The notes under the pieces were generated by a model. The model saw only the letters and a program-made list of their open reading frames with translations. It was not told the DNA's origin and ran no database searches. From Acidimicrobiia bacterium (GTDB lineage Bacteria > Actinomycetota > Acidimicrobiia > Spongiisociales > UBA11373): DNA of 64,000 bases. This document shows, piece by piece, positions 2,348-46,939 of the stretch. The stretch lies in contig JAJCYA010000077.1 in the NCBI GenBank assembly GCA_029263095.1, forward strand, positions 2,874-66,873. Direction: 5' to 3'. The position numbers and the translations under genes were made by a program. Numbering within the stretch: the stretch's first letter is position 1; every line of letters begins with the position of its first letter.

Positions 2348-2384
2348 GCGTCGACCATACCGAGTCCTGGCGCAGAGGCGAGGC

Positions 2385-21882: not shown

Positions 21883-22542
21883 GTGACCGGGAACAGGACC
21901 GGGGACGAGGCCAAGGGTGGAGACGGGTTCGGCAACAGGTCCGAGACCAGGGCAGAGGCAACGGCGGCTCGGATTGTCGGCGCTGCCCGCGGTCTGTTTC
22001 TTGCCAAGAGCTACGCCGAGGTGACGACCGACCTCATCGCACGAGCCGCTGATGTGACCAAGGGTGGCTTGTATCACCACTTTCCGAGCAAGGAATCGTT
22101 GTACCTCTCGATGATGCTGGAGGAGCTGGACCGCAAGCGGCTCCTCTTCGAGAAGGCCGTCGCCATGGCGGGCGACTCCCGTGAACGGCTGGCCCGGCTG
22201 ACCAGAGACTTCCTCGACCTCCCGACCGACGAGCGCGAGTTGATGCGCCTCGTGCGGCGTGACATCAACATCTTCGATGGCGTCGAGCGCGACCAGTTGG
22301 TGCGCGCCTATCAGCGGGCCCTTCCCGAGCAGGTCGAAGCGATCCTGCGCGACGGGATCCGAGATGGCGAGCTGAGCGTCGCCGACCCCCGACTGCTCTC
22401 CTGGTCGTTTGTGGCATTGGTCGAGATCGTGATCGGGGACTACGCGCATCGGGCCCTGGGTGATACCGGAGCTCGTCTCGATCATGTGTTGGAGCTGTTC
22501 TTCGGCGGAGCCGCCGCCCGCAGGGTCGGGGCGGCTGTATGA
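21883..22542 (+). CDS. TetR-family transcriptional regulator, first gene of the bcr-like operon
   Basis: ARGLFLAKSYAEVTTDLIARAADVTKGGLYHHFPSKESL HTH. Its stop overlaps the next gene's start (ATGA). Confidence 0.7.
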   Translation: MTGNRTGDEAKGGDGFGNRSETRAEATAARIVGAARGLFLAKSYAEVTTDLIARAADVTKGGLYHHFPSKESLYLSMMLEELDRKRLLFEKAVAMAGDSRERLARLTRDFLDLPTDERELMRLVRRDINIFDGVERDQLVRAYQRALPEQVEAILRDGIRDGELSVADPRLLSWSFVALVEIVIGDYAHRALGDTGARLDHVLELFFGGAAARRVGAAV

Positions 22543-23714
22543 CAACGATGACGACTCGGGTGTTTCCGGAGTGGCGCGACAAGTCCCTCGACGACTCCTT
22601 GCTGGAGTGCCGCGACCTGGTGGAGTCGGCAGAGTTCGAGACGGTTGCTAGATGGCGCGAGGGTGGGGGTTTGGTCGCCGGCCATTTTCAGGTGTACTTC
22701 CCCGAGGAGATTGTGGAGGCCGCAGGGATGCTCGCCTTCAAGATGCGGGGAGCACCGCTCGAACCCGATCAAGCGGACTCTCATTTCGGCTCCTACCTGT
22801 GCTCGATCCTCAAGACGTCTCTAGAGCTGTCGCTGAGCGGGACGGCCGAGTTGGACGTGTTCTTCTCGCACCCGATTTGCGATGCCGCCCGCAACCTGGC
22901 GGCGATCTGGGGCCGCAACTTCGACTACCCGAGCCAGATTGTGTACCTACCGCAGAACCCCAACTCATCGGGGAGCGTCGAGTACCTGCGTCACGAGTAC
23001 GACCGGGTGCGTCGGGTGGTGGAGGAGGTGTCGGGTCGTGAGATCACCGACGACGATCTGCGCAGATCGATCGAGGTGTTCAACGAGAATCGCCGGCTTC
23101 TTCGTGAGCTGTACGACATCAAGTCGGAGACCCCTTGGCTGATCACCGCCGAGGATGCATACGCGCTGGTGGCGCTGGCCGGGATGATGCCGCGCCGAGA
23201 GCACAACGAGCTGCTGGCGACACTGCTCCCACAGATCAGGGAGCGCACCGCCAAGAAGGAGGACCGAATTCGGTTGGTGTTCGAGGGGGGCTTCTGCGAG
23301 CAGCCGCCGTTCGACCTGATCCGGATGCTGGGTCGGACCAGCTACGTCGTCGACGATGACTTCCTGATCGGGTTGCGTTGGATCACATCGGACGTGCCCA
23401 CCGAAGGAGACCCACTCACCAACCTGGCCGAGGCGTATATCGAGCAGTCGAGCTACAGCCCGGTGCAGCACGATCTGCGCAAGCCGAAGGAGAAGATGCT
23501 GCTGGAGCGGATTCGAGAGTCGGGGGCCGAGGCCGCCGTTCTCGCCGCCGCCAAGATGTGCGAGCCGGGGCTCGAAGAGCAGGTGGCCTACACCCACGCG
23601 CTCGACGAGGCTGGCATTTCCTACTTCGTGTCGGAATTCGAGGAGAACATGAGCTCGTTCGACCAGCTGGAGATGCAGCTCGAGACCTTTGTAGAGAACC
23701 TGCTCTTTGCATGA
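22539..23714 (+). CDS. bcrC: Benzoyl-CoA reductase subunit C / BzdN / HgdB-like (2-hydroxyacyl-CoA dehydratase family, PF06050)
   Basis: 391-aa HGD-D family member, first of a C-B-ATPase-ATPase cluster in the same order as bcrCBAD. Assignment to BCR rather than dehydratase rests on context. Confidence 0.65.
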   Translation: MTTMTTRVFPEWRDKSLDDSLLECRDLVESAEFETVARWREGGGLVAGHFQVYFPEEIVEAAGMLAFKMRGAPLEPDQADSHFGSYLCSILKTSLELSLSGTAELDVFFSHPICDAARNLAAIWGRNFDYPSQIVYLPQNPNSSGSVEYLRHEYDRVRRVVEEVSGREITDDDLRRSIEVFNENRRLLRELYDIKSETPWLITAEDAYALVALAGMMPRREHNELLATLLPQIRERTAKKEDRIRLVFEGGFCEQPPFDLIRMLGRTSYVVDDDFLIGLRWITSDVPTEGDPLTNLAEAYIEQSSYSPVQHDLRKPKEKMLLERIRESGAEAAVLAAAKMCEPGLEEQVAYTHALDEAGISYFVSEFEENMSSFDQLEMQLETFVENLLFA

Positions 23715-25021
23715 TGGAGGAAGGCATGAACAGTGAGGCTGCGGTGGATCTGGTGGGCAGGGGCAACCGGGAGGGTGCCGCGCTGTTTCGCGACTGGTTC
23801 GACGAGCTGAACACGACTGCCACCAGCGGTGGGCAGGCCGCCTACGTGTTCGTCATGGGGAGCATCAACGAGATCCTGAAGTCGTTCGATCTGCCGGTCG
23901 TGTTCCCTGAGATCAACTCTTTGCAGACTGCGGTGCGGCGCGTCGCCCACGAGTACCTGGAGGAAGCCGAGGACTACGGCTATTCGCCCGATATCTGCGG
24001 CTACGTCAAGGCCGACGTCGCCACCCAGTTACGCGGTGGCGAACACCCGATGGGTCAGATTCCACCCCCGACGCTCTCGGTGCTCACCAATGCCTGCAAC
24101 ACCTACATCAAGTGGGCCGAGATCTGGGAGCGGATGTACGACTGCCCCACATTTACTCTCGACGTGCCGGGTACTCGCCAGTCGGGTCGGCAGACCTGGC
24201 GGGGCGACTCCGATTTCGAGGCAGATCGCAAGTACGTCGAGGTACAGCTGCGTGAGCTGATCACCGTCTGCGAGGCGGTGACTGGCCGCAAGTTCGACAT
24301 CGACAAGTTTCGCGAAGTCCTCACCCACGCCAACACGATGAGCCGATCCTGGAATCGGATACTCGAACTCAATCAGTCCAAGCCGGCCCTGTTCAGTGCT
24401 CTCACCGACGGCACGATCTTCCTTGGGGTAGCCAACGGGTTCAGGGGAACGGAGGCCGGTGCTCGCTACTTCGAGCGGCTGGTCGAGGAGATGGAGTACA
24501 AGGCAGCCAACGGGATAGGGACCACCATCGAGGAGGAGTACCGCCTCCTGTTCGTGGGAGTGCCCTGCTACCCGATCTTTCGCCGGTTCAATGAGCTGTT
24601 TACCGACTGGGGAGGCACGTTCGTCAACTCCACCTACCTGTGGTTCGCCTCGGGCGGGACCAACCGCGGTTTCGAGTACGACCTCAAAGACCCGATTGCC
24701 AGCCTGGCCGAGGGGGTATTGGTGAGCGTGCGGGATGCCATGGACGCCATGTTCCATCAGGACGTCGTGCTGGCAGACATGGTCGACGACTTTGGGGCGG
24801 ACGGGGTGATCTACCACCCGATCAAGAGCTGTCGGACCGTCTCCACCGGGCTGGCAGACGGGCGCCGCTATCTGACCAAGGAGCGCGACATCCCCACCCT
24901 GTTCATCGAGTCGGACATGATGGATCGCAGGGTGGTCTCGGAAGCACAGATGAAGAACCGCATCGACGCCTTCTTCGAAGGCTTGGCGTCGCGTCGCCAG
25001 ATGGCTGGAACGAAAGGATGA
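23711..25021 (+). CDS. bcrB: Benzoyl-CoA reductase subunit B / BzdO / HgdA-like (PF06050)
   Basis: 437 aa after trimming the 111 Arg-rich leading codons. Start [10 protein letters not shown] overlaps the upstream stop (ATGA). Confidence 0.65.
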
Positions 25022-25031
25022 GGTGCCACCC

Positions 25032-25853
25032 ATGGCTTATGCAGCCGGAGTAGATGTCGGCTCCACCCAGACGAAGGCCGTGATCATCGGCGAGGACCGC
25101 CGTATCGCGGGGCGTTCACTGCTGGACACGGGGGCCAACGTCATAAAGGCGGCGGAATCCGCCTATATGGCCGCGCTCGAACAAGGGGGGATCGAGGAGA
25201 GAGAGGTCGAGTACGTCGTCGGGACCGGATACGGACGATATCGGGTCACCTTCGGAAACACCCAGGTCACCGAGATCAGCTGCCACGGCCGGGGAGCAGT
25301 CCATCTGTTTCCCAACACCAGGACCGTTGTCGACATGGGGGGACAGGACACCAAGGCGATCAGCGTCAGTCCCCAGGGTGAGATCACCGACTTCTGTATG
25401 AATGACAAGTGTGCCGCCGGAACCGGCCGCTTTCTAGGAGCCGCAGCAGCGGCTCTCGACATTCCCCTCGACGATCTGGGATCGATCTCGCTGAAGTCGG
25501 ACAGACCCATCAAGATCAGCACCACTTGTACGGTCTTCGCCGAATCCGAGGTGCTCGCCTGGATCGGCAAGGGCAAGAAGATCGAGGACATCCTGTCTGG
25601 GGTGCACAAGTCGATTGCCTCCAGATCGGCCGCTCTGATGCGGAGGGTGGGGATCGACGATGAAGTGACCTTTACCGGCGGCGTTTCGCGCAACGAAGGC
25701 ATGGTGAAGGCACTCGAGGACAGGCTCGGTACTCGACTCAACATCAGCGACGATTGCCACTACATGGGGGCACTCGGCGCCGCCCTGTTTGCACTCGATC
25801 ACGTTGTTGCCGGCCGGGCTCCGGCCGCCGAGGGAGCGGGGGTCTCGGCGTGA
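25032..25853 (+). CDS. BadF/BadG/BcrA/BcrD/HgdC-type ATPase (activase) subunit
   Basis: [12 protein letters not shown] (actin-fold phosphate-1) and [11 protein letters not shown] (cluster-binding Cys motif). Confidence 0.75.
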
Positions 25854-26662
25854 TGGTCACAGCAGGGCTCGATGTCGGATCGACGTATACGAAGGTCGTG
25901 ATCCAGGCCGGTGACGGTTCGATCCTCGGCAATGCTGCGGCTCCCACGGGTTTTCGACTGCGGGAGCAGGCCAGGGACACCTACGACAGGGCACTCGCCG
26001 AGGCAGGAATCTCCGAATCCGATGTCGACTACGTGGTGGCCACCGGGATCGGTCGTCACCAGGTCGACTTCAAGGATCTCCACGTGACCGACCTCACCGC
26101 CAGCGCCAGGGGAGCGCACTTCCTGTTCCCGGAGACCCGGACCATTCTCGATATCGGCGGTCAGACGATGAAGGCCAGCCGGATCGACGGTGTTGCCAAG
26201 GTTCTCTCATTCCGCCTCAACGACAAGTGTGCCGCCGGGACCGGCGCCTTCCTGGAGAAGACCGCTCGCTACATGGGGTACACGACCAGCGAGATCGGTC
26301 CGCTGATGTCGACTTCGAAGGATCCGGTGCCGATATCGGGGGTTTGTGCGGTGTTTGCCGAGTCCGAGGTGATCAACCACCTATCTCTGGGGACTGCACC
26401 CGCCGACATCATGCAGGGTGCGATCGAATCGCTGACCAATCGGGCGGTTCAACTGATGAAGCGCGTCAGGGCCGAACCCGAACACACGCTTGTCGGGGGC
26501 ATCCTCAGGTTCGAGACCATGGGTCGCTCCGTGAGTGAGACTCTGGGGGCAGATGTCAATGTCCCTGATCCCGAAATGGTTCAGTTCGTCTCGGCCCTGG
26601 GGTGCGCCATCCTCGCCCGACTCCGGTTGGAGAAGCTGGCGGCGACGGGAGCAGCGGTGTGA
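25853..26662 (+). CDS. Second BadF/BadG/BcrA/BcrD/HgdC-type ATPase subunit
   Basis: AGLDVGSTYTKV and [11 protein letters not shown] motifs. TGATG overlap with the upstream gene. Two ATPase genes is the BCR signature; dehydratases have one. Confidence 0.75.
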   Translation: MVTAGLDVGSTYTKVVIQAGDGSILGNAAAPTGFRLREQARDTYDRALAEAGISESDVDYVVATGIGRHQVDFKDLHVTDLTASARGAHFLFPETRTILDIGGQTMKASRIDGVAKVLSFRLNDKCAAGTGAFLEKTARYMGYTTSEIGPLMSTSKDPVPISGVCAVFAESEVINHLSLGTAPADIMQGAIESLTNRAVQLMKRVRAEPEHTLVGGILRFETMGRSVSETLGADVNVPDPEMVQFVSALGCAILARLRLEKLAATGAAV

Positions 26663-26910
26663 GCACGCCGGTCCGTATCACCGGATTGACTATCGGCGAT
26701 GCCCCCGAGCTGGCTGCGGGCGGTTGGGTCCGGCGCGCCGTGACCGATGCCCAACGAGCCGAGGAGCAGGGACAGCTCTATTCGGAGATCGGCTTCGAAG
26801 TGATGCTGCGTCCCCTCGATGACTCGAGTTACGCCGAAGACTGCACCGGTTGCGCCGCGGGGCCGACTTCGGTCATTGTCTACACCCGTAGGCCCCAAGC
26901 CGCCTCCTAA
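26659..26910 (+). CDS. Hypothetical small protein with a single CxxC, translationally coupled to the ATPase gene
   Basis: GTG start overlaps the upstream TGA (GTGA). Not a canonical 2x[4Fe-4S] ferredoxin. Confidence 0.3.
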   Translation: MSTPVRITGLTIGDAPELAAGGWVRRAVTDAQRAEEQGQLYSEIGFEVMLRPLDDSSYAEDCTGCAAGPTSVIVYTRRPQAAS

Positions 26911-26936
26911 TCGCTCCTCTCTCGGGAGGGGATTCT

Positions 26937-27120
26937 GATCACTCTCCCCTTTGGGTGTCGGGTTGCGCGACAGGGCCGAAGATCGTTGGCTTCTTCTGGA
27001 CTACTCCCCCTCGGAGGGGGAGACAGCGAGCGAAGCGAGCTGGTGGGGGGGAAAGCTCAAGAACCCCCCATCCCCCTCGTCGCTGCGCTCCTCACGGACT
27101 TCCCCCACAAGGGGGGAAAG
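26937..27120. repeat. Third, rearranged copy of the 12.1-kb repeat family
   Basis: Shares the 5' end tgatcactctcccctttggg, then carries the reverse complement of the unit's 3' half (ctactccccctcggagggggag..gctggtgggggggaaagct). Flanked by gattct on both sides; between convergent genes. Confidence 0.65.
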
Positions 27121-27139
27121 ATTCTCCTTCTTGTGCCCG

Positions 27140-27844
27140 CTACAGGTATTGGCCGCCGTCTACTCGGATCACCTGGCCCGTGATGTGGCGGGCGGCATCG
27201 GACACCAAGAAGGCGATCACGTCGGCGACGTCTTCGGGCTCACCGAGGCGCCCCAGACTGCTGTCTTTGCGAGCCGCCTCTTGGATCTCATCGGGTAATG
27301 ACACCGTCATTGGGGTGCGGATCATGCCGGGGGCGACGACGTTTACCCGAATCCCAAAGTGGCCGAGCTCTCGGGCCAGCGATTTGGCCAACCCGTGGAG
27401 ACCGGCCTTGGAGGCGGCATAGTTGGCCTGGCCGAACTTGCCACGTTCTCCGTTGATCGAAGACACGAAGACGATGGCGCCGCCGCCTGCTTGCCGCATC
27501 AGGGGTGTCGCCGCTCGGCTGAGATAGAAGCCCGAATCGAGGTTGACGGCCAGCACAGATTTCCAGTCGGAGTCGTCCATCTTCCACGACACACCATCTC
27601 TGGTGATACCGGCAGCATGGACCAGGACGTCCAGGCCTCCAAACGCCTCGGCGGCGGCACTCACCGCATCGGCGCATGCAGCGGGGTCGGCCAGGTCGCA
27701 AGCGAACATCTCGTCGGCACCGGGTGGTGGGTCGTTTGTCTGAATGTCGGCGACGGCCACTAGGTGGTCCGTCTGTGCCAACGCCGCCACCGTTGCGCGG
27801 CCGATTCCTCCGCTCCCGCCACTGACCAGTGCTCTGACACTCAT
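27140..27844 (-). CDS. SDR-family oxidoreductase (3-oxoacyl/3-hydroxyacyl reductase-like)
   Basis: SGGSGGIGRA glycine motif, the NYAASKAG catalytic YxxxK, and the C-terminal ITGQVIRVDGG. Confidence 0.7.
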   Translation of the reverse strand: MSVRALVSGGSGGIGRATVAALAQTDHLVAVADIQTNDPPPGADEMFACDLADPAACADAVSAAAEAFGGLDVLVHAAGITRDGVSWKMDDSDWKSVLAVNLDSGFYLSRAATPLMRQAGGGAIVFVSSINGERGKFGQANYAASKAGLHGLAKSLARELGHFGIRVNVVAPGMIRTPMTVSLPDEIQEAARKDSSLGRLGEPEDVADVIAFLVSDAARHITGQVIRVDGGQYL

Positions 27845-28599
27845 GCATTTCTCCACTCTGGGTTGCGCTTGTCGAGAAACGCTTGGATTCCCTCGACTCC
27901 GTCGTGGAGCTCGAGAAGCTCCTCGAGGTAGATGCGCTCGGCATTGCTGAGGCGGTCCTCGATTGCCTTGCGCTGTGGCTCCCGTACCGCTCGGGTGGCC
28001 AAGCGCAGCGAAGCGGCCGAGCGAGGTGCGAAGTGCTCGGCTATGAACCCGTCCACCGTCTCATCGAGGCTGTTCGATGGGGCGAGCGCGTTGACGATCC
28101 CGAGTCTGAAGGCCTCGGTTGCGGTCAAGTCTCGACCGGTGAGGAGCACGTCCTCGGCGGCGCGTCCTGTCAAGAGGGCGGTCGCCGCCGGGGCGAGCAC
28201 CCCGAGGCGAATCTCGGGCGAGGCGAGCACGGCGTCTTCCTCGGCAATGACGATGCCGCACGCTAGGGCCAATTCCAGCCCTCCGCCCAAGCACCGGCCC
28301 TGGACCCCGGCCAGCGTCGGGTATGGGAAGCCGACCAGGTCGCGTACCACGCCGCCGATCGCCTCCAACATCTGCGGTGCTTGCTCGGGCAGGTGCTCCT
28401 CGACGCTGGCGCCGAACGAGAAGTGCTTCCCGGCCCCCCGCAGCACCAGCACCTTGCCGCGCTCATCGGCTGCTGCTGTCGCGATGGCGGGTCGTAGCTC
28501 GGCACATAGAGCCAGGTCGATCACATTGCCGGGCGGTGAGTCCATCGTGATCGTCTGGACACCGCCGTCGGGTGACGCAGTGTGGAGCACGATGGCCAT
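27841..28599 (-). CDS. dch: Enoyl-CoA hydratase (crotonase fold), candidate cyclohexa-1,5-diene-1-carbonyl-CoA hydratase (Dch)
   Basis: Crotonase motifs (GAGKHFSFGASV, GGGLELALACG) in a ~28-kDa protein placed between oah and an SDR. Dch identity is contextual. Confidence 0.6.
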   Translation of the reverse strand: MAIVLHTASPDGGVQTITMDSPPGNVIDLALCAELRPAIATAAADERGKVLVLRGAGKHFSFGASVEEHLPEQAPQMLEAIGGVVRDLVGFPYPTLAGVQGRCLGGGLELALACGIVIAEEDAVLASPEIRLGVLAPAATALLTGRAAEDVLLTGRDLTATEAFRLGIVNALAPSNSLDETVDGFIAEHFAPRSAASLRLATRAVREPQRKAIEDRLSNAERIYLEELLELHDGVEGIQAFLDKRNPEWRNA

Positions 28600-29696
28600 C
28601 AGGATTGCGGGGAAATGGCGGCGGTCAGATCATCGCCCCAAGTCTCGCCACCGGCGAGGCGGAGGCGGAGATCGACGAAGTCGACCTCGCGGCCAACCTC
28701 CCTGTCGCCGCGGTGAAACGCCTGGAAGCCGGCCTTGGCTTCGGTCATCATGTTCAACGAGAGCCAAGCTCGGTTGGTCTCCTTGTTCTGATCCCAATGC
28801 TCCAGCTTCTTCTTTCGCATCGACTCGACGGTCTTGATGGTGCAGTCGGGCATGGTGTAGAGGATCTTGGTGACAAGCGCCTCGACTCCGGCGTCGAGTA
28901 GAGAGAAGTCGGTCTCGCCGGCCTTCAGCATTGCCTTGCCGTCGGCGAGGTCATCACCTTCCTTCATCTTCCCGTGGACGATCCGACCCCAATCGTCGAG
29001 GTAGCGATCCGTGATCACCAATGGGTTGGGGACGAACTCCCCATCCACTTTGAGTACAGGGAAGATGTCATTGACCAGGCCCAGACGGAGTGCCTCGTGG
29101 GCGCTCCACGCCTCGCACAGCACACAGGAGGCCATGGCCTCGCCGAAGCCGACGTATAGGTGCAGAAAGTCGGTGGAGCCACCATCGGGCGCCGAGCCGT
29201 GCTTGGGTCCTGCCTGGCCGAAGCGGGCCAGATCGCTGGCGACGGTGAAGTCACACGCCATCCCGATCTCCTGGCCGCCGCCGATCCGCATGCCGTTGAC
29301 TCGGTTGATCACCGGCTTGTCGCAGGCAAGGATCGTCGAGACCATGTCGTTGAAGAGCCGCATGTATTGGCGGTACTCACCAGGTCGGCCGGCGTAGTAC
29401 TCGGAGTACTCCTCGGTGTTGCCCCCGGTGCAGAAGGAGCGATCTCCGGCGCCCGTAAAGACGACTGCCACCGCGGCCCGATCTACCGAGGCGCGCCGGA
29501 AGGCGAGGATCGTGTCCTTGACGGTTTCGGTCGTATAGGAGTTGAGCTGCTCGGGGTTGTCGAGCGTAATCCACACCGAATGCAGACCGTCCACCGGTTG
29601 TCCGGAGGAGTCGAGGACCGGCTTCTCCTCGTAACGGACCTCGGTGAGTTCCCGGTCGGGTACCAGATCGTGGTTCTTGAACTCCATGGGCTCCAT
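28599..29696 (-). CDS. bamA: 6-oxocyclohex-1-ene-1-carbonyl-CoA hydrolase (ring-cleaving crotonase; BamA/Oah)
   Basis: 366 aa after trimming 110 Arg-rich leading codons; SD AAAGGA upstream. Contains LNSYTT and QEIGM, the peptide motifs targeted by the bamA primers SP9/ASP1, with 19/22 and 17/18 nt identity to the primer sequences. Confidence 0.8.
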   Translation of the reverse strand: MEPMEFKNHDLVPDRELTEVRYEEKPVLDSSGQPVDGLHSVWITLDNPEQLNSYTTETVKDTILAFRRASVDRAAVAVVFTGAGDRSFCTGGNTEEYSEYYAGRPGEYRQYMRLFNDMVSTILACDKPVINRVNGMRIGGGQEIGMACDFTVASDLARFGQAGPKHGSAPDGGSTDFLHLYVGFGEAMASCVLCEAWSAHEALRLGLVNDIFPVLKVDGEFVPNPLVITDRYLDDWGRIVHGKMKEGDDLADGKAMLKAGETDFSLLDAGVEALVTKILYTMPDCTIKTVESMRKKKLEHWDQNKETNRAWLSLNMMTEAKAGFQAFHRGDREVGREVDFVDLRLRLAGGETWGDDLTAAISPQS

Positions 29697-29701
29697 TCCT
29701 T

Positions 29702-30760
29702 TCACGGTATGAGAATCGAACGGCGGGGGTCGGATCCGGAACGAGCAGCTGCCAGCGCCGCTTCGGCCTCCGCCATCGGGACCTTGCGGGTAAACGGGAG
29801 AAGATCGATGCGCCCTGCGGTGACCAGTTCCACAGCCTCTGGATAACGCTCCGGCGGACAGCCCCATGAGCCGAAGGCGGCGGCGTCGAAGGCCATGAGG
29901 TTGGAGAGGCGAATCGAAACCTTGTCCATGGTGAATCCGACCACCGCCAGCGTGCCGGCGGGACCCAGCATCCCGAAGGCCGTCTCCTGGCCGGGGGCGG
30001 TGCCGGAGCACTCGAATATCTTCCACCCGGTCGATGGGGCGTTGAGGTCACGGGCCTGCTCCCGAGCGGCGTCACGCACCTGGCGTGGTGATAGGCCGTC
30101 GGCATTGACGGTGGTGGATGCACCGTGGTCGAGTAGTGGGGTCAAACGGGCTTCGTCGACATCGACTGCGATCACGGTGGCTCCCGAGGCTGCTGCGATC
30201 TGGACCGCGTAGGTGCCGACACCTCCGGTGCCTATCACGACGGCCAGGTCACCTTCGGCGACACCGGCACGTCGTATCGCCTGGAGCGGCGTTGTGACGG
30301 CGTCGGCGACCACTGCGAAATCGGCCAGTTCGTACCCGTTGGGGAGGGAATCGATCGCGGCCAAACCCACCGCCGGCACGGTGACGTGGGTGGCGAATCC
30401 GCCGTCGAGATCGTTCCCCGGCATCTTCTGCCGTTTACATACGTTGCCGCGGCCCGACGTACACAGGCCGCACTCGCCGCACGGGATGACGGCGGGCACC
30501 AGCACATCTTTGCCCAACCAAGCCTCGGCGCCGGTTCCGGTCGCGATGATCGTTCCGACGATCTCATGTCCCAGTACCAGAGGGAGGGACGCCCTGGTGG
30601 CGACGTGACCGTCGGCAAAGCCGAGGTCGGTGTGGCATACCCCACATCCGGCGATTTCGATCAGCACCTCGCCAGCCTCGGGGTCCCTCCCGGCGTCTTC
30701 CACCCGTTCCAGGGTCTTGCCCGGCTCCACCAGGCGCCAGGAGTAGCGGTCGGCGCTCAT
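29702..30760 (-). CDS. had: Zinc-dependent alcohol dehydrogenase family, candidate 6-hydroxycyclohex-1-ene-1-carbonyl-CoA dehydrogenase (Had)
   Basis: GCGVCHTDL, GHEIVG, CGECGLCTSGRGNVC and GTGGVGTYAVQIA motifs. Lies directly upstream of bamA; SD GGAGAGGAG. Confidence 0.65.
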   Translation of the reverse strand: MSADRYSWRLVEPGKTLERVEDAGRDPEAGEVLIEIAGCGVCHTDLGFADGHVATRASLPLVLGHEIVGTIIATGTGAEAWLGKDVLVPAVIPCGECGLCTSGRGNVCKRQKMPGNDLDGGFATHVTVPAVGLAAIDSLPNGYELADFAVVADAVTTPLQAIRRAGVAEGDLAVVIGTGGVGTYAVQIAAASGATVIAVDVDEARLTPLLDHGASTTVNADGLSPRQVRDAAREQARDLNAPSTGWKIFECSGTAPGQETAFGMLGPAGTLAVVGFTMDKVSIRLSNLMAFDAAAFGSWGCPPERYPEAVELVTAGRIDLLPFTRKVPMAEAEAALAAARSGSDPRRSILIP

Positions 30761-30864
30761 CTTGACTTGGGCTCCTCTCCTGGGCCGGACCATGTTGGCA
30801 CAAGCTCCTGGGGATCCGATCGGCTGCCGACCAGCGATGGGACCGCTCCGGGTACTGTGCCCAG

Positions 30865-31416
30865 ATGAGCGACACCGCAACCGGAATCTTGCGAGCGGAA
30901 CACCGGCTCATCCTGGAAGTGGCTTCGGTGCTGGAGAGGGCTCTGGACACCGGGGAGGGTGATCACGACACGCTGGGCGACTGCATTGCTTTCTTTCGCC
31001 TCTTTGCCGACGCCTGCCATCACGGGAAGGAGGAGGACCTTCTGTTTCCCGCTCTGGAGGACGAGGGAATGCCCACCGACGCCGGGCCGATCGCCGTCAT
31101 GCTTCATGAGCACCGCATCGGGCGTGAGTTCATCCGCCGCATGGCCGACGCATTGCCCCGCTCCGGTGAGGGTGACTCCACCGCCGCCACCGAGGTCGCC
31201 GATGCCGGTCGGGGCTACATCGAGCTGATCAGGGCGCACATAGCCAAAGAGGACGGGGTTCTTTTCGAAATGGCCGACGGGATGGTCACCGGCCCCGCCT
31301 GCAGGGACTTGTGCTCGGCGTACGACGAGGGTTGTGCCCGCCGCTTCGAGGGCAAGACGCTGCAGGATCTGGAGGATTTGGCCGAGTCGCTGCGAGGTCG
31401 CTACCCCGCAGTCTGA
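30865..31416 (+). CDS. Hemerythrin HHE cation-binding domain protein
   Basis: H..E/H...H spacing (ILRAEHRLI, CHHGKEEDLLFP, MLHEHRIGREF, RAHIAKED). Confidence 0.6.
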   Translation: MSDTATGILRAEHRLILEVASVLERALDTGEGDHDTLGDCIAFFRLFADACHHGKEEDLLFPALEDEGMPTDAGPIAVMLHEHRIGREFIRRMADALPRSGEGDSTAATEVADAGRGYIELIRAHIAKEDGVLFEMADGMVTGPACRDLCSAYDEGCARRFEGKTLQDLEDLAESLRGRYPAV

Positions 31417-31907
31417 GAGTCGAGCAGCGCCAGGATTCCTCCTGCCGCCAGGATGTCGCGCATTTCGGGAGGAAGTGGCTCTCCCTGGAGGCGACGGTCG
31501 CCGTCACCGGAGGTGATAGTGCCCGCCGCCAGGTCAACCGCCACCTCGTCTCCATCGGCGAAGGCCTCGTGGACTCCTGCACAGATGAGTACCGGGAGCC
31601 CGATGGCAACCGCGTTGCGCATGAACAGGCGAGACAACGACTCGGCGACAACGCAGGCAACTCCGAGGGCCTTTAGGTTCTCGGCCGCGGTTTCGCGGCT
31701 CGACCCGCATCCAAAGTTCCTGCCTGCGATCACCAGATCGCCGGTTCGCACGTCGGAGGCAAACCCAGGGCTGATCGACTCCAGAGTGTGGATCATCCGT
31801 ACCTCGACGGGATCCACCGCGTACGTGCCGGGAGACAGCAGGTCGGTGCTGACATCGTGATCGAACTTCCAGGCTCGGCCCTGCATCATTGCGCCGGTCT
31901 CAGACAT
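31401..31907 (-). CDS. leuD: Aconitase-family small subunit (LeuD-like, short archaeal/HACN type)
   Basis: 168 aa with a swivel domain (GRNFGCGSSRE). SD GAGGAGG 6 nt before the ATG. Confidence 0.7.
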   Translation of the reverse strand: MSETGAMMQGRAWKFDHDVSTDLLSPGTYAVDPVEVRMIHTLESISPGFASDVRTGDLVIAGRNFGCGSSRETAAENLKALGVACVVAESLSRLFMRNAVAIGLPVLICAGVHEAFADGDEVAVDLAAGTITSGDGDRRLQGEPLPPEMRDILAAGGILALLDSQTAG

Positions 31908-33168
31908 TTGCTGCCTCCTCCCTCGGGTCGGCGATTCGGCCAGCCAGCGCGGATGCGGCGACGGTTTCGGGTGACGCCAGGTAGATCTCAGCCTGGGGGC
32001 TGCCCATCCGGCCAATGAAATTCCGGTTGTGAGTGCCGATGCAACGCTCTCCCGGCGCAAGCAAGCCGCCGTGGCCGCCAAAGCACGGACCGCATCCGGA
32101 TGGCAGCACCGAAGCGCCGGCTTCGACCAACGTGGCGACTATGCCCTCATCGATGGCCTGGGAAAGGACGCCGCGTGAGGCGGGTGCCACCAGCAGGCGG
32201 ACACCTGCGGCGATTTTGCGACCATCGAGGATGGCGGCTGCCGCCCGAAGATCTTCGATGCGGCCGTTGGTGCATGAGCCGAGGAAGGCCTGTTGGATCG
32301 TGATGTCGGTCAGGTCATCCACCGCCTCCACGTTGTCCACCTCGTGGGGGAGGGCTACTTGCGGCGCCAGGGCGGAGAGGTCCATCTCGTGCTCGGCCTC
32401 GTAGGAGGCGTCGCCATCGGGTTCGAGTGGTGCGACGTCTTCGATGCCCCGGTCCGCAAGGTAGGCGGCGGTGACGGCATCCGACGGGAAGAGAGCAAAC
32501 TTGGCGCCCATCTCGAGGCCCATGTTGGAGACCGTGAGGCGGCTGGACATTCCGGCCGCGGCAACGGCCGGTCCGCCAAACTCCATCGACCGGTACTGGG
32601 CACCGTCGGAGCCAAAGCGACCGGCCAGCGCCAAGATGACGTCCTTCCAAGATACGCCGCGGGTCAGGGATCCGCGAAGCTCGTAGCGGATGGTCTCGGG
32701 AACCCGGAACCACAACCGTCCCGTGGCCATGACGTATGCCATCTCCGAGGTTCCGATCCCGGTGGAGGCCGCCGCGAGTGCTCCGTGGGTTGTGGTGTGG
32801 GAGTCGGTTCCCACAACCATCATTCCGGGCCGGATGTGGCCCTTCTCAGGGAGCAACTGGTGGCTTATTCCCTCGCCGGAATCGTAGAAGGCGTCTATGC
32901 CGAGACGGGCCACATGGTCGCGGATCCGATGATGGACGGCAGCAGCCTCGGCAGAAGGAGCAGGTACCAGGTGGTCGATGACGACGACGGCCTTGTCGGG
33001 ATCGAACACTTTTCCTCCGCCCACTTCGGCCAGCATGTCGAAGACAGAAGCGGCAAAGATGTCGTGCACCATGGCGAGGTCGATGTCGGCGACGATGAAC
33101 TCGCCCGCGGTGACGGTGTCGCGCCCCGCCGCTCTCGCCATGATCTTTTCGGCCAGTGTTGAACCCAT
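31900..33168 (-). CDS. leuC: Aconitase-family large subunit (LeuC-like, short type) with 3 cluster Cys
   Basis: GTDSHTTTHGA, GSCTNGR and SGCGPCFG motifs. ~420 aa, the small-subunit-type architecture. Confidence 0.75.
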   Translation of the reverse strand: MGSTLAEKIMARAAGRDTVTAGEFIVADIDLAMVHDIFAASVFDMLAEVGGGKVFDPDKAVVVIDHLVPAPSAEAAAVHHRIRDHVARLGIDAFYDSGEGISHQLLPEKGHIRPGMMVVGTDSHTTTHGALAAASTGIGTSEMAYVMATGRLWFRVPETIRYELRGSLTRGVSWKDVILALAGRFGSDGAQYRSMEFGGPAVAAAGMSSRLTVSNMGLEMGAKFALFPSDAVTAAYLADRGIEDVAPLEPDGDASYEAEHEMDLSALAPQVALPHEVDNVEAVDDLTDITIQQAFLGSCTNGRIEDLRAAAAILDGRKIAAGVRLLVAPASRGVLSQAIDEGIVATLVEAGASVLPSGCGPCFGGHGGLLAPGERCIGTHNRNFIGRMGSPQAEIYLASPETVAASALAGRIADPREEAANV

Positions 33169-33182
33169 GCCCCTCCCTCCGT

Positions 33183-33929
33183 TCAGCTCGCGCCCAGGCT
33201 GCGCCCGCCGCATACGTACAGCACCTGACCGGTGACGTATGAGGCCTCATCGGAAGCCAGATACAGCACCGCATTGCCGATGTCATCGGGGGTCCCCACC
33301 CGTCGTAGCGGGATGGTCTTGACGAGACGTTCCTTGACCTCATCGTCGAGTCCCTGGAACAGCGGGGTATCGACCAATGCTGGGGCGATGCAGTTGGCGG
33401 TGATCTGGTATCGAGCCATCTCCAGCGCCAGGGTGCGAGTAAGGCTGATCACCGCTCCCTTGGATGCGGCGTAATTGGCCTGGCCGGGACCTCCGAGCCA
33501 TGCCCGCGATGAGATGTTGACGATGCGTCCGTGCTCCTGCTCCATCATGTGGGGAGCGGCGGCGCGGCAGGTGAGGAACTGCGACTTGGTGTTGACGCGC
33601 AGCACCTCGTCCCAGTTCTCTTCGCTCATCTTGGCGAGCCAACCGTCGCGGGCGATGCCGGCATTGTTGACGAGGATGTCCACCCGGTCGTGAGCGTCCA
33701 TCGCTCCGGCAATCAATGCCGCCGCACCGTCGGCAGTGCCGACATCTGAGGCGATACCCGTGGCGTCGATCCCCGCGCCGTGGAGACCGTCCACTGAATC
33801 CTGGACCCGATCCTCCACGAGGTCGTTGACGACGACCTTGGCCCCTGCAGCGCCCAAGACCCGGGCGATCCCCGCTCCGATGCCCTGGCCGGCACCGGTG
33901 ATGACCGCCACCCGATCCATTACGTTCAT
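33183..33929 (-). CDS. SDR-family oxidoreductase (FabG-like)
   Basis: TGAGQGIGAGIA, NNAGI and YAASKGAV motifs. Confidence 0.7.
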   Translation of the reverse strand: MNVMDRVAVITGAGQGIGAGIARVLGAAGAKVVVNDLVEDRVQDSVDGLHGAGIDATGIASDVGTADGAAALIAGAMDAHDRVDILVNNAGIARDGWLAKMSEENWDEVLRVNTKSQFLTCRAAAPHMMEQEHGRIVNISSRAWLGGPGQANYAASKGAVISLTRTLALEMARYQITANCIAPALVDTPLFQGLDDEVKERLVKTIPLRRVGTPDDIGNAVLYLASDEASYVTGQVLYVCGGRSLGAS

Positions 33930-33957
33930 GATTGCTACCTCCCTAGGTCCGACACCA

Positions 33958-34758
33958 CTAGCGGCCCTTGAACTCGGGGCTTCTCTTGTCGATGAATGCC
34001 TGGATGCCCTCTTGGCGGTCCTCGCTCGCCCGCAGGACGGCGTGGCTGGTCGACTCGAAGTCGAGTCCGGCCTCGATGTCGGTGTCGGCGGCGCGGTTGA
34101 TGAGCACCTTGATCCGATCCAGCGAGAGCGGCGCCTTGGCGGCGATTCCCTGAGCCATCGTCATGGCCTCGGCGAGAAGGTCGGCGTCCGGTACAACCCG
34201 ATTGACCAGACCCATCCGGTGCGCCTCGGCGGCGCTGTATCGCTCGGCCGTGAACATCATCTCCTTGGCGTATCCCGGTCCGACGAGGCGGGTGAGACGC
34301 TGGGTCCCCCCGGCACCGGGGAGACTTCCCACCTTGGCTTCGGGGAACCCGAGCTGGGCGCTCTCGGCGGCGATGCGGATGTCGCACGCGAGAGCCATCT
34401 CCATCCCGCCGCCCAGCGCATAGCCTTGGATCGCCACCACGACCGGGACATTCAGATTCTCGAAGCGCCCAAACACACTGCGCACCAGGATTCCCAACGG
34501 ATCGTGCACGGCGCCCGCCTCGTACTCGGCCGCCCGACTTTTGAGGTCGGCGCCCACACAGAACGCCTTTTCTCCGGCGGCGGCCAATACCACGGCTCGA
34601 ATGTCAGGATCGGCCTCGATCTCGTCGAGTAGACGGCCCATCGTGTGCAGCATGTCGGTCGTCATTGCATTCAGCGCTTGGGGTCTGTTGAGCGTCATCA
34701 CCGCAACTGCTCCGTCGCGCTCGAACAGGACCAGCTCTTCGAGGGTCTCTTCTGCCAC
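33958..34758 (-). CDS. Enoyl-CoA hydratase/isomerase (crotonase family)
   Basis: [24 protein letters not shown] and [18 protein letters not shown] motifs. Confidence 0.75.
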
Positions 34759-34766
34759 TTCTGCTC

Positions 34767-35969
34767 CTATCTCTCCGGGCCGGCGACGACGGCGCGGCCC
34801 ATCAGGTCTTCGATCTCGTCGTTGGTGAACTCGAACTCGACGAGTACTTCACGTGTGTGCTCACCCGGAATCGGCGGAGCCGAGAGGTTCGGGGGCCCAT
34901 CGTTGGCTGAGAGGCGCGCAGGAATGCGCGGCGATCGGACGGCTCCCGAGACCGGATGCTCAGTAGTGACAATCATCCCTCCCGACTCCACCTGTTCGGA
35001 TGTGATCAGTTCGGGGTAGGCGAGGATGGGGCCACACAGAATGTCGGCGGCCTCCAGGGTCTCGATCCACTCTGCGGTTGTGCGGGTGGCAAAGATGGGA
35101 GCCAGCACCGCGTTGAGGTCGGCTCGGGCCTCCACCCGCTTCCCGTTGTCTTCAAAGCGCGGGTCCTGCGCGAGATCGGGTAGTCCCAGAGCCTCACAGA
35201 GCGCCGGCCACCGCTTAGCGGTATAGGCAGCCACCATCACGTGTCCATCGGCGGTGGCATAGGCCTCGTTGGGTGCGGCGTATGGGGCGGCGCTGCCCAA
35301 ACGACGAGGTGTCTCCCCGCTGGCTAGGAACATGGAGAGTGGGACTACCTGGAACGCCAGTAGAGCGTCGAGGAGTGACACATCCACCCGCTGCCCCTTG
35401 CCGGTGCGCTCTCTGTCTAACAGGGCGGCAAGGATCGCCTGGGTCATAAACGCTCCGCCGGCCATATCGGCGGCGGGTACTCCCACCTTCACCGGCCCCG
35501 CGTCATCGGTGCCGGTCACGCTCATAATGCCGCCCATCGCCTGCGCGACGCCATCCACGCCGGGACGATCTCGCCAGGGGCCCTCCCGGCCGAAAGCCGA
35601 GATGGCTGCATAGATCAGGCCAGGGTTGCGGGCCGCCATGGAGTCGTATCCGATGCCGAGGCGGTCGGCTACACCGGGACGGAAACTTTCGAGCGCCACG
35701 TCGCATCGAGCGGCGAGGCGCAAGATCACCTCGCTCCCACCGTCTTGCTTGAGATCGGCCACGACGCTGCGCTTGTTGCGGTTCATCCCCAGGAACGCGG
35801 CGGCGGCACCTGCGACGAACGGTGGTCCCAGATTGCGACCCCACTCGCCTCCCGGCGGCTCGACCTTTATCACCTCGGCCCCGAGGTCGGCGAGGTGCAT
35901 GGCGCAGGTGGGGCCTGCCGCTCCCTGTGATAGATCGAGGATTCTCAACCCGGCGAGTGCCCTGCTCAA
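34767..35969 (-). CDS. Family III CoA-transferase (CaiB/BaiF)
   Basis: [33 protein letters not shown] at the N-terminus, conserved Asp region; ~400 aa. Confidence 0.75.
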
Positions 35970-36595
35970 CGCGTGACCTCCCCGGCTGCGGCCCGTTCGG
36001 TGTCTCGCGCTCCGAGTCCGCGCACTGCGGTGTCGGCGAATGTTGCTGCTATCTCGTCGGGGGCGTACTCCCCGGTGGGTCGGTAGCGACGGATGACGCT
36101 GTCACACATACCGAGAAGGGCCATCGTTGCCAACCCAGAGTCCTGCTCCAGGAACTCGCCGCGGTCGATACCTTCCTCGATCACCTTCTGGAAGAGCGAC
36201 TCGTATTCGCCCTTCTTTTTGCGGTGAGTCTCCATGAAGGTGGGGGAGAGGTACCGACTCTCCTCCGAGAAGCAGGCTACGTAATCCCTCTCTCTGATCG
36301 ACTCGACGGTGTGGAGCGTCAGAGCCCTATGGAGTCGCCCGGTGGCCGGGAGGTCCGACTGGGCGATCTCTCGCACGAGGGGGGTGACTCGGCTCATCGT
36401 CACTTCGATGATTTCGGCGAGCAAGGCCTGCTTGCTGGGGTAGTGGTGATACAGGCTCGATTTGGTGATACCGACGGCAGTTGCCAATGCCTGCATGCTC
36501 GTTCCGTTGAACCCCTTCTGGCGAAACAGGGTTGCGGCAGAGTCCCGGATCCGTTCCGCTGTTCCCGGCTCCTGCGCTGACTCCCGATTGATCAC
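35966..36595 (-). CDS. TetR-family transcriptional regulator
   Basis: IRDSAATLFRQKGFNGTSMQALATAVGITKSSLYHHYPSK HTH. GTG start overlaps the upstream stop (GTGA). The upstream 207 codons of the ORF were rejected. Confidence 0.6.
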   Translation of the reverse strand: MINRESAQEPGTAERIRDSAATLFRQKGFNGTSMQALATAVGITKSSLYHHYPSKQALLAEIIEVTMSRVTPLVREIAQSDLPATGRLHRALTLHTVESIRERDYVACFSEESRYLSPTFMETHRKKKGEYESLFQKVIEEGIDRGEFLEQDSGLATMALLGMCDSVIRRYRPTGEYAPDEIAATFADTAVRGLGARDTERAAAGEVTR

Positions 36596-37833: not shown

Positions 37834-38015
37834 GGCGTCCTCCTTCGATCATTCCGTATCGGACCGACGCAGGACGACTCTGGTGGTACCCGTGCTGCGG
37901 GCGGCTTCTCCATGACGCCCGACCCCTCGATACTTCAGCGGCCGGGTGGCACGGCGAGTAGTCTACCGAACGGTCGGACGGCGCGTAGCTGGAGGCAACT
38001 GATGGAGGTTCGACG

Positions 38016-38444
38016 GTGACGACGGCGCAACCGGAGACGGTCCCGAAATCGTTCCGCCCCGTGGAATTCGAGGTCACGGCAGGGGGTGAGGGGTTCTTGC
38101 TGGGCAGTCGCTGCAGCAACTGTGGAGCTCACTTCTTTCCGGTACGGCAGGCGTGTTCCGGGTGTCTACACGCCGATCTGGAGACAGTCCGATTCTCGAC
38201 AACGGCGACGCTCTACACCTTCTCTGTAGTCCGCCAATCCACGCCGGACTTCGCCGTGCCCTATGCCCTCGGCTATGTCGATCTGCCGGAAGGGGTGCGG
38301 GTCATGGCACAGCTCACCGGCCGCGACCCTGAGGATTACCAAATCGGGATGGAGATGGAATTGGTGGTGGAGCCTTTTGGCGCAGATGAGGACGGCAACG
38401 AGATGACCGGCTACCGCTTCCAGCCCAAGGAGGGGTCCCAATGA
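38016..38444 (+). CDS. DUF35 Zn-ribbon/OB-fold protein (thiolase-associated)
   Basis: CSNCGAHFFPVRQACSGC Zn ribbon followed by an OB fold. Immediately upstream of and overlapping an SCP-x-type thiolase. Confidence 0.7.
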   Translation: MTTAQPETVPKSFRPVEFEVTAGGEGFLLGSRCSNCGAHFFPVRQACSGCLHADLETVRFSTTATLYTFSVVRQSTPDFAVPYALGYVDLPEGVRVMAQLTGRDPEDYQIGMEMELVVEPFGADEDGNEMTGYRFQPKEGSQ

Positions 38445-46840: not shown

Positions 46841-46939
46841 CTGGTGAGCGTACGCATCATCTGGGATCACCACAGCTGTTGCGACCGAACGGCTCCGCGG
46901 CGTGAGATAACGCGGGGTCTTGGTACCGTCGGACGCGAC

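Follow-up and report, generated by a model that had tools for sequence, protein, structure and literature searches.

Four tightly coupled, co-directional open reading frames on the minus strand, in the order had, oah/bamA, dch-like and SDR, very probably constitute an operon for the modified β-oxidation that follows ATP-dependent ring reduction of aroyl-CoA; its expression and activity are predicted. They occupy positions 27140–30760 of the window, i.e. the whole 64 kb stretch of DNA analysed, which belongs to a metagenome-assembled contig of an uncultured Acidimicrobiia (Actinomycetota) bacterium. The block is convergent to a plus-strand reductase operon ending at 26662. The initial annotation had described this arrangement and had read the block as a ring-hydrolysis (ring-opening) module; the frames were found where it had placed them, and its reading is backed by Oah and Had scores above curated cut-offs. 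Gene starts and junctions were taken from the nucleotide sequence, followed by an exact-sequence look-up of the products; those of 362, 252 and 234 residues (three of the four genes) are exact records on an 88,131 bp NCBI contig. The features of the block are as follows.

ATG 30760 to stop 29702, minus strand: had, 352 aa
29688..30026, minus strand: spurious 5′ extension of the bamA frame, non-coding in that frame and overlapping had in another
ATG 29687 to stop 28599, minus strand: oah/bamA, 362 aa
29528..29549, minus strand: site of bamA primer SP9 (encoding QLNSYTT), 19 of 22 bases matched
29258..29275, plus strand: site of bamA primer ASP1 (antisense of QEIGM), 17 of 18 bases matched
ATG 28599 to stop 27841, minus strand: dch-like crotonase, 252 aa, 26.6 kDa (initially given as 28 kDa)
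ATG 27844 to stop 27140, minus strand: SDR, 234 aa

The sequence GGAGAGGAG lies 11 nt upstream of the had ATG at 30760. AAGGA (5 nt spacer) stands immediately after the had stop, oah and the dch-like gene overlap by 1 nt (TGATG), and the dch-like and SDR genes are coupled by an ATGA overlap.

In the proposed pathway, the neighbouring reductase, of the MBR type, would deliver cyclohexa-1,5-diene-1-carbonyl-CoA or a substituted analogue. The Dch-like protein would hydrate the cyclohexadiene-carbonyl-CoA, Had would oxidize the hydrated product to the 6-oxo compound in an NAD+-dependent reaction, and Oah/BamA would add water and cleave a ring C–C bond hydrolytically, giving 3-hydroxypimeloyl-CoA. 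The fourth gene product, an NAD-type SDR, would most likely convert the Oah product to 3-oxopimeloyl-CoA.

The 362-residue protein scored 556.3 bits on the NCBIfam equivalog TIGR03200 (cut-off 464.45), aligned over profile positions 2–356 of 360. The next-best NCBIfam families were BadI (129 bits), MenB (107–119 bits) and ordinary enoyl-CoA hydratases (<105 bits). By profile it is thus a member of the Oah/BamA family with predicted ring-hydrolase activity; clustering with ordinary enoyl-CoA hydratases had been named beforehand as the outcome that would speak against BamA, and the scores point the other way. Members of the family are expected to carry a crotonase domain and a family-specific C-terminal extension, giving about 360–380 residues versus about 260. 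With the 366-residue translation as query, Pfam ECH_1 was limited to residues 43–220, and the domain is followed by an extension of about 140 residues, the TIGR03200 alignment reaching residue 359. Homologues are 355–384 residues long. A search of the PDB gave no Oah structure; the best solved structure was MenB (116 bits, residues 43–223). The BadI/MenB branch holds the nearest families outside Oah and shares with it the motif GPKxGS...DGG, but its matches are limited to the N-terminal crotonase domain, the 140-residue C-terminal region being Oah-specific.

The true bamA start is ATG 29687. As tracked, the frame runs over 28599–30026 (475 aa), and of the 113 residues upstream of the methionine at 29687, 20 are Arg and 21 Gly. 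The Arg-rich extension said to mask the start is real; it arises where the 3′ end of had (29702–30026) is read in the wrong frame. The alternative first ATG at 29696 would give 365 residues, but it abuts the ribosome-binding site. ATG 29687 leaves a spacing of 9 nt and agrees with the homologues and with the deposited protein (P0001), to which the 362-residue product is identical and which, like them, begins MEFKNHD. The length of 366 residues given initially counted a non-start GGA codon and is corrected to 362.

The 352-residue protein, proposed initially as a Had candidate of the zinc-ADH type, passed TIGR03201 with 435.1 bits (cut-off 338.65; profile positions 2–349 of 349; next NCBIfam family 138 bits) and is a member of the Had family by profile, with predicted catalysis. 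Its Pfam domains, ADH_N and ADH_zinc_N, are those of a Zn-dependent medium-chain alcohol dehydrogenase. The catalytic Zn motifs CGVCHTD and GHEIVG, the structural Zn motif CGECGLCTSGRGNVC and the NAD fold (GTGGVG...AVDVD) were read from the sequence.

The 252-residue crotonase had been put forward as the Dch candidate. Its best NCBIfam family is indeed TIGR03189 (213.5 bits, profile positions 8–250 of 251; next family 126 bits), but the score lies below the cut-off of 292.5. The syntenic proteins of Rhodoplanes and Bradyrhizobiaceae (loci L040 and L072), 40–41% identical to it, both pass (368.6 and 361.7 bits), and the protein is their positional orthologue; its identity to the other crotonase of the window is only 32%. 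TIGR03189 was the top family of every dch-position protein scored, with values of 369, 362, 290, 260, 256, 232, 209–213 (Acidimicrobiia), 198 and 191 bits. The protein contains GGGLE and SPEIRLG, which are conserved in the syntenic homologues and which we take to be the two hydratase glutamate motifs of enoyl-CoA hydratases. Because the curated cut-off is missed, it is described as Dch-like and a probable Dch rather than a proven member; the assignment is based on the lead of about 87 bits, the conserved position and the way the scores of dch-position proteins grade into values above the cut-off.

The synteny comparison covered 80 genomes of GTDB species, representing ten or more phyla. In 70 of 74 loci the gene immediately upstream of oah is a had homologue, and in 65 of 73 the one immediately downstream is a dch-like homologue; the order had–oah–dch is conserved across phyla. 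Reductase genes occur within 10 kb in 64/80. In most other phyla, the same had–oah–dch proteins stand, at similar identity, beside reductases of the Thauera BCR type, so that a single type of reductase does not define the company of the module.

The BamA protein carries the marker peptides LNSYTT and QEIGM. The primer sequences used in the initial annotation agree with the published SP9 and ASP1 (PMC3794298, PMC3579730), and its counts of matched bases were reproduced. The SP9 mismatches fall at primer positions 4, 5 and 15, leaving the seven 3′ bases perfect, and the single ASP1 mismatch at position 5; the suggested in-silico PCR gave a product of 292 bp. No such SP9 match was found in 100 shuffles (0/100). 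Among the 80 homologues the SP9 peptide reads QFNSYTT in 29, QLNSYTT in 26 and QYNSYTT in 17, and 48 have at least three SP9 mismatches. Such matches are typical of bamA genes generally and so add little to the protein-level evidence.

Dch, Had and Oah of Thauera aromatica are the equivalents of BamR, BamQ and BamA of Geobacter metallireducens and of BzdW, BzdX and BzdY of Azoarcus/Aromatoleum; their pathway roles have been described (PMC1924859, PMC9795900, PMC6678401). The block resembles these systems in its three reactions and protein families, a likeness established through NCBIfam profiles (Oah and Had above cut-off). It also shares the bamA marker peptides and the primer sites at the same 292 bp spacing. 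It differs in its host (an uncultured member of the Acidimicrobiia instead of a proteobacterium), in the order had–oah–dch with an SDR as fourth gene, in the divergent Dch and in the SP9 peptide (QLNSYTT instead of QYNSYTT).

The reductase and further context genes in the window are listed below.

21883..22542, plus strand: TetR-family regulator (TetR-type NCBIfam matches), sharing 4 nt with the first reductase gene
22539..26662, plus strand: operon for an MBR-type class I aryl-CoA reductase of four subunits, by PDB matches
22539–23714, plus strand: mbdN-like, 515.5 bits to MbdN
23711–25021, plus strand: mbdO-like, 550.9 bits to MbdO (56% identity over 423 residues)
25023–25853, plus strand: mbdQ-like, 412.8 bits to MbdQ
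25853–26662, plus strand: mbdP-like, 297.9 bits to MbdP
38016–39583: BbsAB-like thiolase
40719–44511: 4-hydroxybenzoyl-CoA reductase-like γ/α/β set

Class I reductases have been divided into the types BCR, MBR and BZD (PMC11971306). The best PDB matches of the subunits pair one-to-one with MbdN, MbdO, MbdQ and MbdP of the solved 3-methylbenzoyl-CoA reductase (9g87, 9gai); BzdO and BzdN reached only 92–98 bits, and 2-hydroxyisocaproyl-CoA dehydratase subunits 116–126 bits. None of the four subunits reaches the NCBIfam cut-offs for the Thauera or the Azoarcus type. Assignment to the Thauera BCR type (BcrCBAD, TIGR02263/02260/02259/02261) was rejected, the scores being 248.5 versus 421, 211.4 versus 487, 210.7 versus 578 and 149.9 versus 313 bits; true BCR-type neighbours at two other loci (L072 and L007) reached 466–833 bits. 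On these scores the reductase is of the MBR and not of the Thauera BCR type. Of the Thauera-type route proposed initially, the dch/had/oah chemistry thus stands, as opposed to Rhodopseudomonas badK/H/I, while the adjacent reductase departs from it. Given the reductase type, the physiological substrates may include methyl- or halo-substituted rings besides benzoyl-CoA. Hemerythrin was observed to be frequent in MBR-type clusters.

The TetR gene is kept beside the reductase in two further loci (L003 and L006); its product matches MbdR (PDB 4uds) only weakly (38.9 bits, seventh in the match list). The 4-hydroxybenzoyl-CoA reductase-like genes would supply benzoyl-CoA, in unsubstituted form, and the thiolase could have a lower-pathway role. 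Neither an aryl-CoA ligase nor a ferredoxin (CxxCxxCxxxC motif) was found within the 64 kb, and the pathway is accordingly incomplete within the window.

The enzymes of the block might instead be functional equivalents of MbdW, MbdX and MbdY acting mainly on methyl- or halo-substituted dienoyl-CoA, with 3-hydroxy-methylpimeloyl-CoA as product; this we consider unlikely. The Azoarcus mbd operon encodes MbdMNOPQWXYZ under control of the TetR-family MbdR, and the window shares with that cluster the reductase type (4/4 subunits paired, MbdO at 56% identity), an adjoining TetR-family regulator, here co-transcribed with the reductase, and a linked hydratase/dehydrogenase/hydrolase module (PMC4424350). 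The score of the Dch-like protein, under the cut-off made for the benzoyl-CoA pathway, would also fit. Differences from the mbd cluster are the gene order N-O-Q-P, a ring-opening module that is convergent and not in the same operon, a window without an MbdM-equivalent ferredoxin and a regulator with little similarity to MbdR. Oah and Had, moreover, score above cut-off on equivalogs designed for the benzoyl-CoA pathway, the same three proteins accompany BCR-type reductases in most other phyla, and the 4-hydroxybenzoyl-CoA reductase-like genes of the island would yield an unsubstituted substrate. MBR-type reductases also reduce benzoyl-CoA, which is a further point against a dedicated mbd-type module.

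Two other readings appear very improbable. In a Rhodopseudomonas-type (bad) route to pimeloyl-CoA, the 362-residue protein would be a hydrolase like BadI (2-ketocyclohexanecarboxyl-CoA hydrolase), the SDR would resemble BadH (2-hydroxycyclohexanecarboxyl-CoA dehydrogenase) and the crotonase BadK. An SDR and crotonase-family enzymes do share the operon, and BadI is the second-best family of the hydrolase; however, its match to TIGR03210 reached only 129.3 bits (cut-off 467.6) over residues 42–221, against 556 bits over the full length for Oah, so that BadI identity was rejected and the bad route is disfavoured. A dedicated Had of the Zn-ADH type that passes its equivalog is present, and the family profile matches of the SDR gave no specific BadH signal. 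The genes could also be a generic fatty-acid β-oxidation set, or an unrelated crotonase, alcohol dehydrogenase and SDR with chance primer matches, since these families are large and paralogues are plentiful in the window. At the level of sequence evidence this is refuted by equivalog-level scores for two genes, by the shuffles and by a three-gene order kept across many phyla beside arene reductases.

Within the ring-opening operon favoured here, the SDR is probably an NAD-dependent 3-hydroxypimeloyl-CoA dehydrogenase. Its family matches (FabG, acetoacetyl-CoA reductase and (3R)-hydroxyacyl-CoA dehydrogenase types) allow a generic assignment; an Asp at the end of β2 (VAVAD) and the Ser and YxxxK residues were read from the sequence. 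Homologues (39–66% identity) occur in 22 of the 80 oah loci; these 22 include 8 of the 12 loci whose reductase is of the MBR type. The gene adjoins oah, upstream of dch, in six loci, whereas the six other Acidimicrobiia loci have no such SDR next to dch. In Aromatoleum the 3-hydroxypimelyl-CoA dehydrogenase step (AabC) comes after BzdY (PMC9795900). The proposed role matches that of AabC, which in Aromatoleum sp. CIB carries out the first step of the lower pathway encoded by aab (PMC9795900); the SDR of the window is generic and FabG-like, and lies inside the ring-opening operon instead of in a separate aab cluster.

The four-gene block represents the known ring-opening steps of oxygen-free aromatic breakdown and is ordinary apart from its host and its MBR-type neighbour. 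To our knowledge, no cultured anaerobic benzoyl-CoA reducer exists among the Actinomycetota. It is conceivable, though we hold it with somewhat less than even confidence, that Acidimicrobiia run complete ATP-dependent arene reduction, in which an MBR-type reductase and had–oah–dch with a recruited NAD-dependent SDR lead to 3-oxopimeloyl-CoA, and the SDR and hemerythrin are accessory parts. By recruiting its own SDR, the operon would then deliver 3-oxopimeloyl-CoA and not 3-hydroxypimeloyl-CoA from the ring-opening unit, and both accessory parts would be previously unassigned components of the ring-opening module.

Genes were called from an ORF listing of 24–34 kb of the window and from a base-level read of 27100–30960 on the minus strand. 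Four consecutive minus-strand genes were found at 27140–30760, and the convergent block that the initial annotation had placed next to the reductase operon is present:

ATG 30760 to stop 29702, minus strand: had, Zn-ADH-type dehydrogenase (352 aa, 36.2 kDa)
ATG 29687 to stop 28599, minus strand: oah/bamA, 6-oxo-ene ring hydrolase (362 aa, 40.1 kDa)
ATG 28599 to stop 27841, minus strand: dch-like gene, crotonase family (252 aa, 26.6 kDa)
ATG 27844 to stop 27140, minus strand: SDR gene (234 aa, 24.1 kDa)

The four genes are joined as in a translationally coupled operon: AAGGA immediately follows the had stop in the base read, oah and dch have one base in common (TGATG) and dch and the SDR gene overlap by ATGA. 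Products of 362, 252 and 234 aa with identical sequences are recorded on an 88,131-bp NCBI contig, which confirms the starts of three of the four genes; since the 352-aa Had as called has no exact match on record, its start was assigned by reference to the GGAGAGGAG site, 11 nt ahead of the ATG. The 252-aa protein is also encoded on a 1.76-kb Logan contig from run SRR15505517. The mechanical bamA ORF is 475 aa long, and the 113 residues ahead of Met 29687 (20 Arg and 21 Gly among them) are the Arg-rich extension previously noticed as masking the bamA start, which corresponds to the out-of-frame 3′ end of had. The first ATG, at 29696 (365-aa product), abuts the ribosome-binding site. An earlier length of 366 aa for BamA had taken in a GGA codon and is corrected to 362 aa; likewise, the crotonase described as 28 kDa has a computed mass of 26.6 kDa. 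The block converges on the plus-strand reductase operon, which ends at 26662. No convincing ORF, Rfam family, terminator-like site or ferredoxin was found in the 478-nt convergent gap (26663–27139), which holds only short G/C-run inverted repeats (27040–27111).

The closest proteins were from uncultured Acidimicrobiia (one 100% identical, several at 90–93% and many at 79–85%). A profile scan with the BamA alignment was performed on one genome per GTDB species and the 80 closest oah/bamA loci (L001–L080), all in metagenome-assembled genomes, were used for comparison. Six of these are from Acidimicrobiia or Microthrix, and the others are from Acidobacteriota, Gemmatimonadota, Myxococcota, Planctomycetota, Bacteroidota, Ignavibacteria, Alphaproteobacteria and others; Thauera, Geobacter and Azoarcus were absent from the 80 closest loci. 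BamA was also sought on PLSDB plasmids by tblastn, without a match. Synteny was counted by tblastn with the window's proteins. Of the 74 loci with space for the gene, 70 have had immediately upstream of oah; a dch-like gene is directly downstream in 65/73, and reductase genes lie within 10 kb in 64/80. Close homologues already carry matching annotation, and the window's module adds to known systems.

Curated equivalog HMMs (NCBIfam) and synteny were used in place of an anchored phylogeny. Oah scored 556.3 bits against TIGR03200 (cut-off 464.45), with profile positions 2–356 of 360 aligned, and the families ranked after it were BadI (129 bits) and MenB (107–119 bits), which places the 362-aa protein with BamA rather than with ordinary hydratases. 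Its crotonase domain covers residues 43–220 only (Pfam), the C-terminal rest being a family-specific region. The zinc-ADH proposed as Had matched TIGR03201 over its full length (435.1 bits, cut-off 338.65) and keeps this name. None of the PDB structures is an Oah, Had or Dch, and those matching best were MenB and generic hydratases.

The proposal that the 252-aa crotonase is Dch stood in part: TIGR03189 (Dch) ranked first and the gene position is conserved, but the score of 213.5 bits (next family 126 bits) is below the cut-off of 292.5. Ten dch-position proteins of oah loci were scanned against NCBIfam with the same cut-off. TIGR03189 was the top family in all ten, and the scores graded continuously from Rhodoplanes (369 bits) and Bradyrhizobiaceae (362 bits), which pass, through Brocadiaceae (290 bits), Myxobacteria (256–260 bits), Ignavibacterium (232 bits) and Acidimicrobiia (209–213 bits) to Gemmatimonadales (198 bits) and Thermoanaerobaculia (191 bits). 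The window's protein shares 40–41% identity with both passing proteins and only 32% with the window's other crotonase. On this continuum and these identities the 252-aa protein is treated as a putative divergent positional orthologue of Dch, scoring outside the curated family.

The bamA marker primer sequences used in the initial annotation agree with the published ones, CAGTACAAYTCCTACACVACBG for SP9 and CMATGCCGATYTCCTGRC for ASP1 (PMC3794298, PMC3579730). The earlier match counts were reproduced, with 19/22 bases for SP9 at 29528–29549 (mismatches at primer positions 4, 5 and 15, the last seven 3′ bases perfect) and 17/18 for ASP1 at 29258–29275 (mismatch at primer position 5). In-silico PCR gave a 292-bp product, and both marker peptides are present in Oah as QLNSYTT (formerly given as LNSYTT) and QEIGM. 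No SP9 match was found in any of 100 shuffled sequences. The primer-site matches are correct yet not distinctive: the SP9 peptide reads QFNSYTT in 29, QLNSYTT in 26 and QYNSYTT in 17 of the 80 homologues. SP9 has at least three mismatches in 48/80 bamA genes and its targeted Tyr codon is Phe or Leu in at least 55/80, so that SP9/ASP1 surveys probably under-sample non-proteobacterial bamA.

Three types of class I benzoyl-CoA reductase are distinguished, namely BCR (Thauera Bcr), MBR (3-methylbenzoyl-CoA, Mbd) and BZD (Azoarcus Bzd) (PMC11971306). The neighbouring enzyme, initially read as benzoyl-CoA reductase-like within a Thauera-type route, is indeed a class I reductase, but all four subunits score well below the Thauera-type and Azoarcus-type NCBIfam cut-offs. 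The oah-adjacent reductases of Bradyrhizobiaceae and Thermoanaerobaculia easily pass the Thauera-type models. In the PDB the subunits were matched as follows (9g87/9gai):

22539–23714, plus strand: reductase subunit, MbdN (515.5 bits)
23711–25021, plus strand: reductase subunit, MbdO (550.9 bits, 56% identity over 423 residues)
25023–25853, plus strand: reductase subunit, MbdQ (412.8 bits)
25853–26662, plus strand: reductase subunit, MbdP (297.9 bits)

BzdN and BzdO gave merely 92–98 bits in the PDB search. From the one-to-one matches to 3-methylbenzoyl-CoA reductase subunits, the window's reductase (22539–26662, plus strand) is assigned by sequence to the MBR type. The failing Bcr and Bzd models had suggested a third, new kind of class I reductase, an idea that was dropped on this PDB match. 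An MBR-type reductase accompanies had-oah-dch in 12/80 loci, with Gemmatimonadota, Vicinamibacterales, Eisenbacteria and Omnitrophota among the hosts. For a cluster-mate of the MbdN-like protein (≥90% identity), NCBI gives the name '2-hydroxyacyl-CoA dehydratase' and JGI 'benzoyl-CoA reductase subunit C'; the MBR-type reductase, which scores below the Bcr and Bzd cut-offs, is therefore missed by surveys based on those models. The first reductase gene shares a 4-nt overlap with a TetR-family gene. In Azoarcus, the mbd cluster, which encodes MbdMNOPQWXYZ, is likewise under TetR-type control by MbdR (PMC4424350), but the window's TetR is only weakly similar to it in sequence. The MbdR match was weak and seventh in the list, and the two regulators were taken to be analogous, not orthologous.

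The chemistry and gene families of the module belong to textbook anaerobic aromatic catabolism. The MBR-type reductase would provide a dienoyl-CoA, which the operon would hydrate, then oxidize and then open hydrolytically to 3-hydroxypimeloyl-CoA, the SDR probably oxidizing this product further; we hold this reading with high confidence. That the module is instead an MbdW/X/Y equivalent acting mainly on methylated or halogenated rings is unlikely. Both the MBR type of the adjoining reductase and the TetR gene beside it would fit such a role, but the same module, at similar identity, occurs with BCR-type reductases elsewhere, Oah and Had pass equivalogs made for the benzoyl-CoA pathway, and unsubstituted benzoyl-CoA would come from the 4-hydroxybenzoyl-CoA reductase-like genes. 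A Rhodopseudomonas-type route and a generic β-oxidation reading were rejected on scores.

The SDR is of generic FabG type (NCBIfam), and among PDB structures it comes closest to FabG enzymes, a (3R)-hydroxyacyl-CoA dehydrogenase (2et6) and acetoacetyl-CoA reductases. In SDRs generally, the residue at the end of β2 indicates NAD or NADP; the motif VAVAD at this position points to NAD rather than NADP as the probable cofactor. SDR homologues (39–66% identity) were found in 22/80 loci, 21 of them with the gene co-directional with oah, and in 8/12 loci with an MBR-type reductase versus 13/52 with the other type. The homologue lies next to oah and upstream of dch in six loci (L033, L035, L037, L039, L048 and L079) and after the last reductase gene in others; no homologue was found beside dch in the six other Acidimicrobiia loci. 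The step following Oah is catalysed by 3-hydroxypimelyl-CoA dehydrogenase, AabC in Aromatoleum (PMC9795900). This would be the most economical role for the SDR, and is proposed tentatively, at somewhat under even odds, from its family of 3-oxoacyl/3-hydroxyacyl thioester oxidoreductases, its coupling to dch and the nature of the step that follows Oah.

The aromatic island spans approximately 21.9 to 46.5 kb of the window and includes:

30865–31416, plus strand: hemerythrin-domain protein, divergent from had
31401–40722: LeuCD-like dehydratase pair, second SDR, second crotonase, family III CoA-transferase, second TetR gene, IPMS-like aldolase/synthase, BbsAB-like thiolase pair and PrpF-like isomerase
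40719–44511, plus strand: three-subunit molybdenum hydroxylase, best families 4-hydroxybenzoyl-CoA reductase gamma/alpha/beta

Hemerythrin homologues were also seen in L012, L059, L074, L035, L003 and L001; in several other phyla they lie within or adjacent to MBR-type clusters, and in L012, L059 and L074 the gene separates dch from the first reductase gene. This hints that the hemerythrin may handle oxygen or iron in connection with the oxygen-sensitive reductase. The gene order around the module is the same in L001 (73–93% identity), and IPMS, BbsAB and PrpF are conserved beside had in every Acidimicrobiia locus long enough to show them; the BbsAB-like thiolase could be a candidate 3-oxopimeloyl-CoA thiolase. 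The gamma, alpha and beta subunits of the molybdenum hydroxylase, which lies directly upstream of had in L002, L003 and L006, all score below cut-offs (190 versus 258, 862 versus 995 and 277 versus 405 bits, respectively). No aryl-CoA (benzoate-CoA) ligase was found within the 64-kb window, nor a 2×[4Fe–4S]-type ferredoxin motif CxxCxxCxxxC in any of its frames, so that the genes for the activation step and the electron donor must lie elsewhere.

Upstream of the catabolic island are a 541-aa ORF (851–2476, minus strand) whose C terminus holds a T4 gp19 tail-tube domain, a 1001-aa ORF (3665–6670, minus strand) with no Pfam match and a HipA-type kinase toxin gene (9159–10442, plus strand); together they may represent what is left of a prophage, or a contractile-injection-system region. 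The 500-aa protein encoded at 46817–48319 (plus strand) contains a serpin domain at full length (307 bits); such domains are uncommon in bacteria.

The frequency of SP9 mismatches (48/80) bears on bamA amplicon censuses of anaerobic aromatic degraders. In a 2025 study, bcrBC and bbsA were described in marine-sediment members of the UBA5794 Acidimicrobiia (PMC12008989). The window presents a coherent syntenic case of Acidimicrobiia with the whole reduce-and-open core, beyond stray bcr matches, the points of note being the actinobacterial host, the MBR-type partner missed by standard models and the recurrent SDR.
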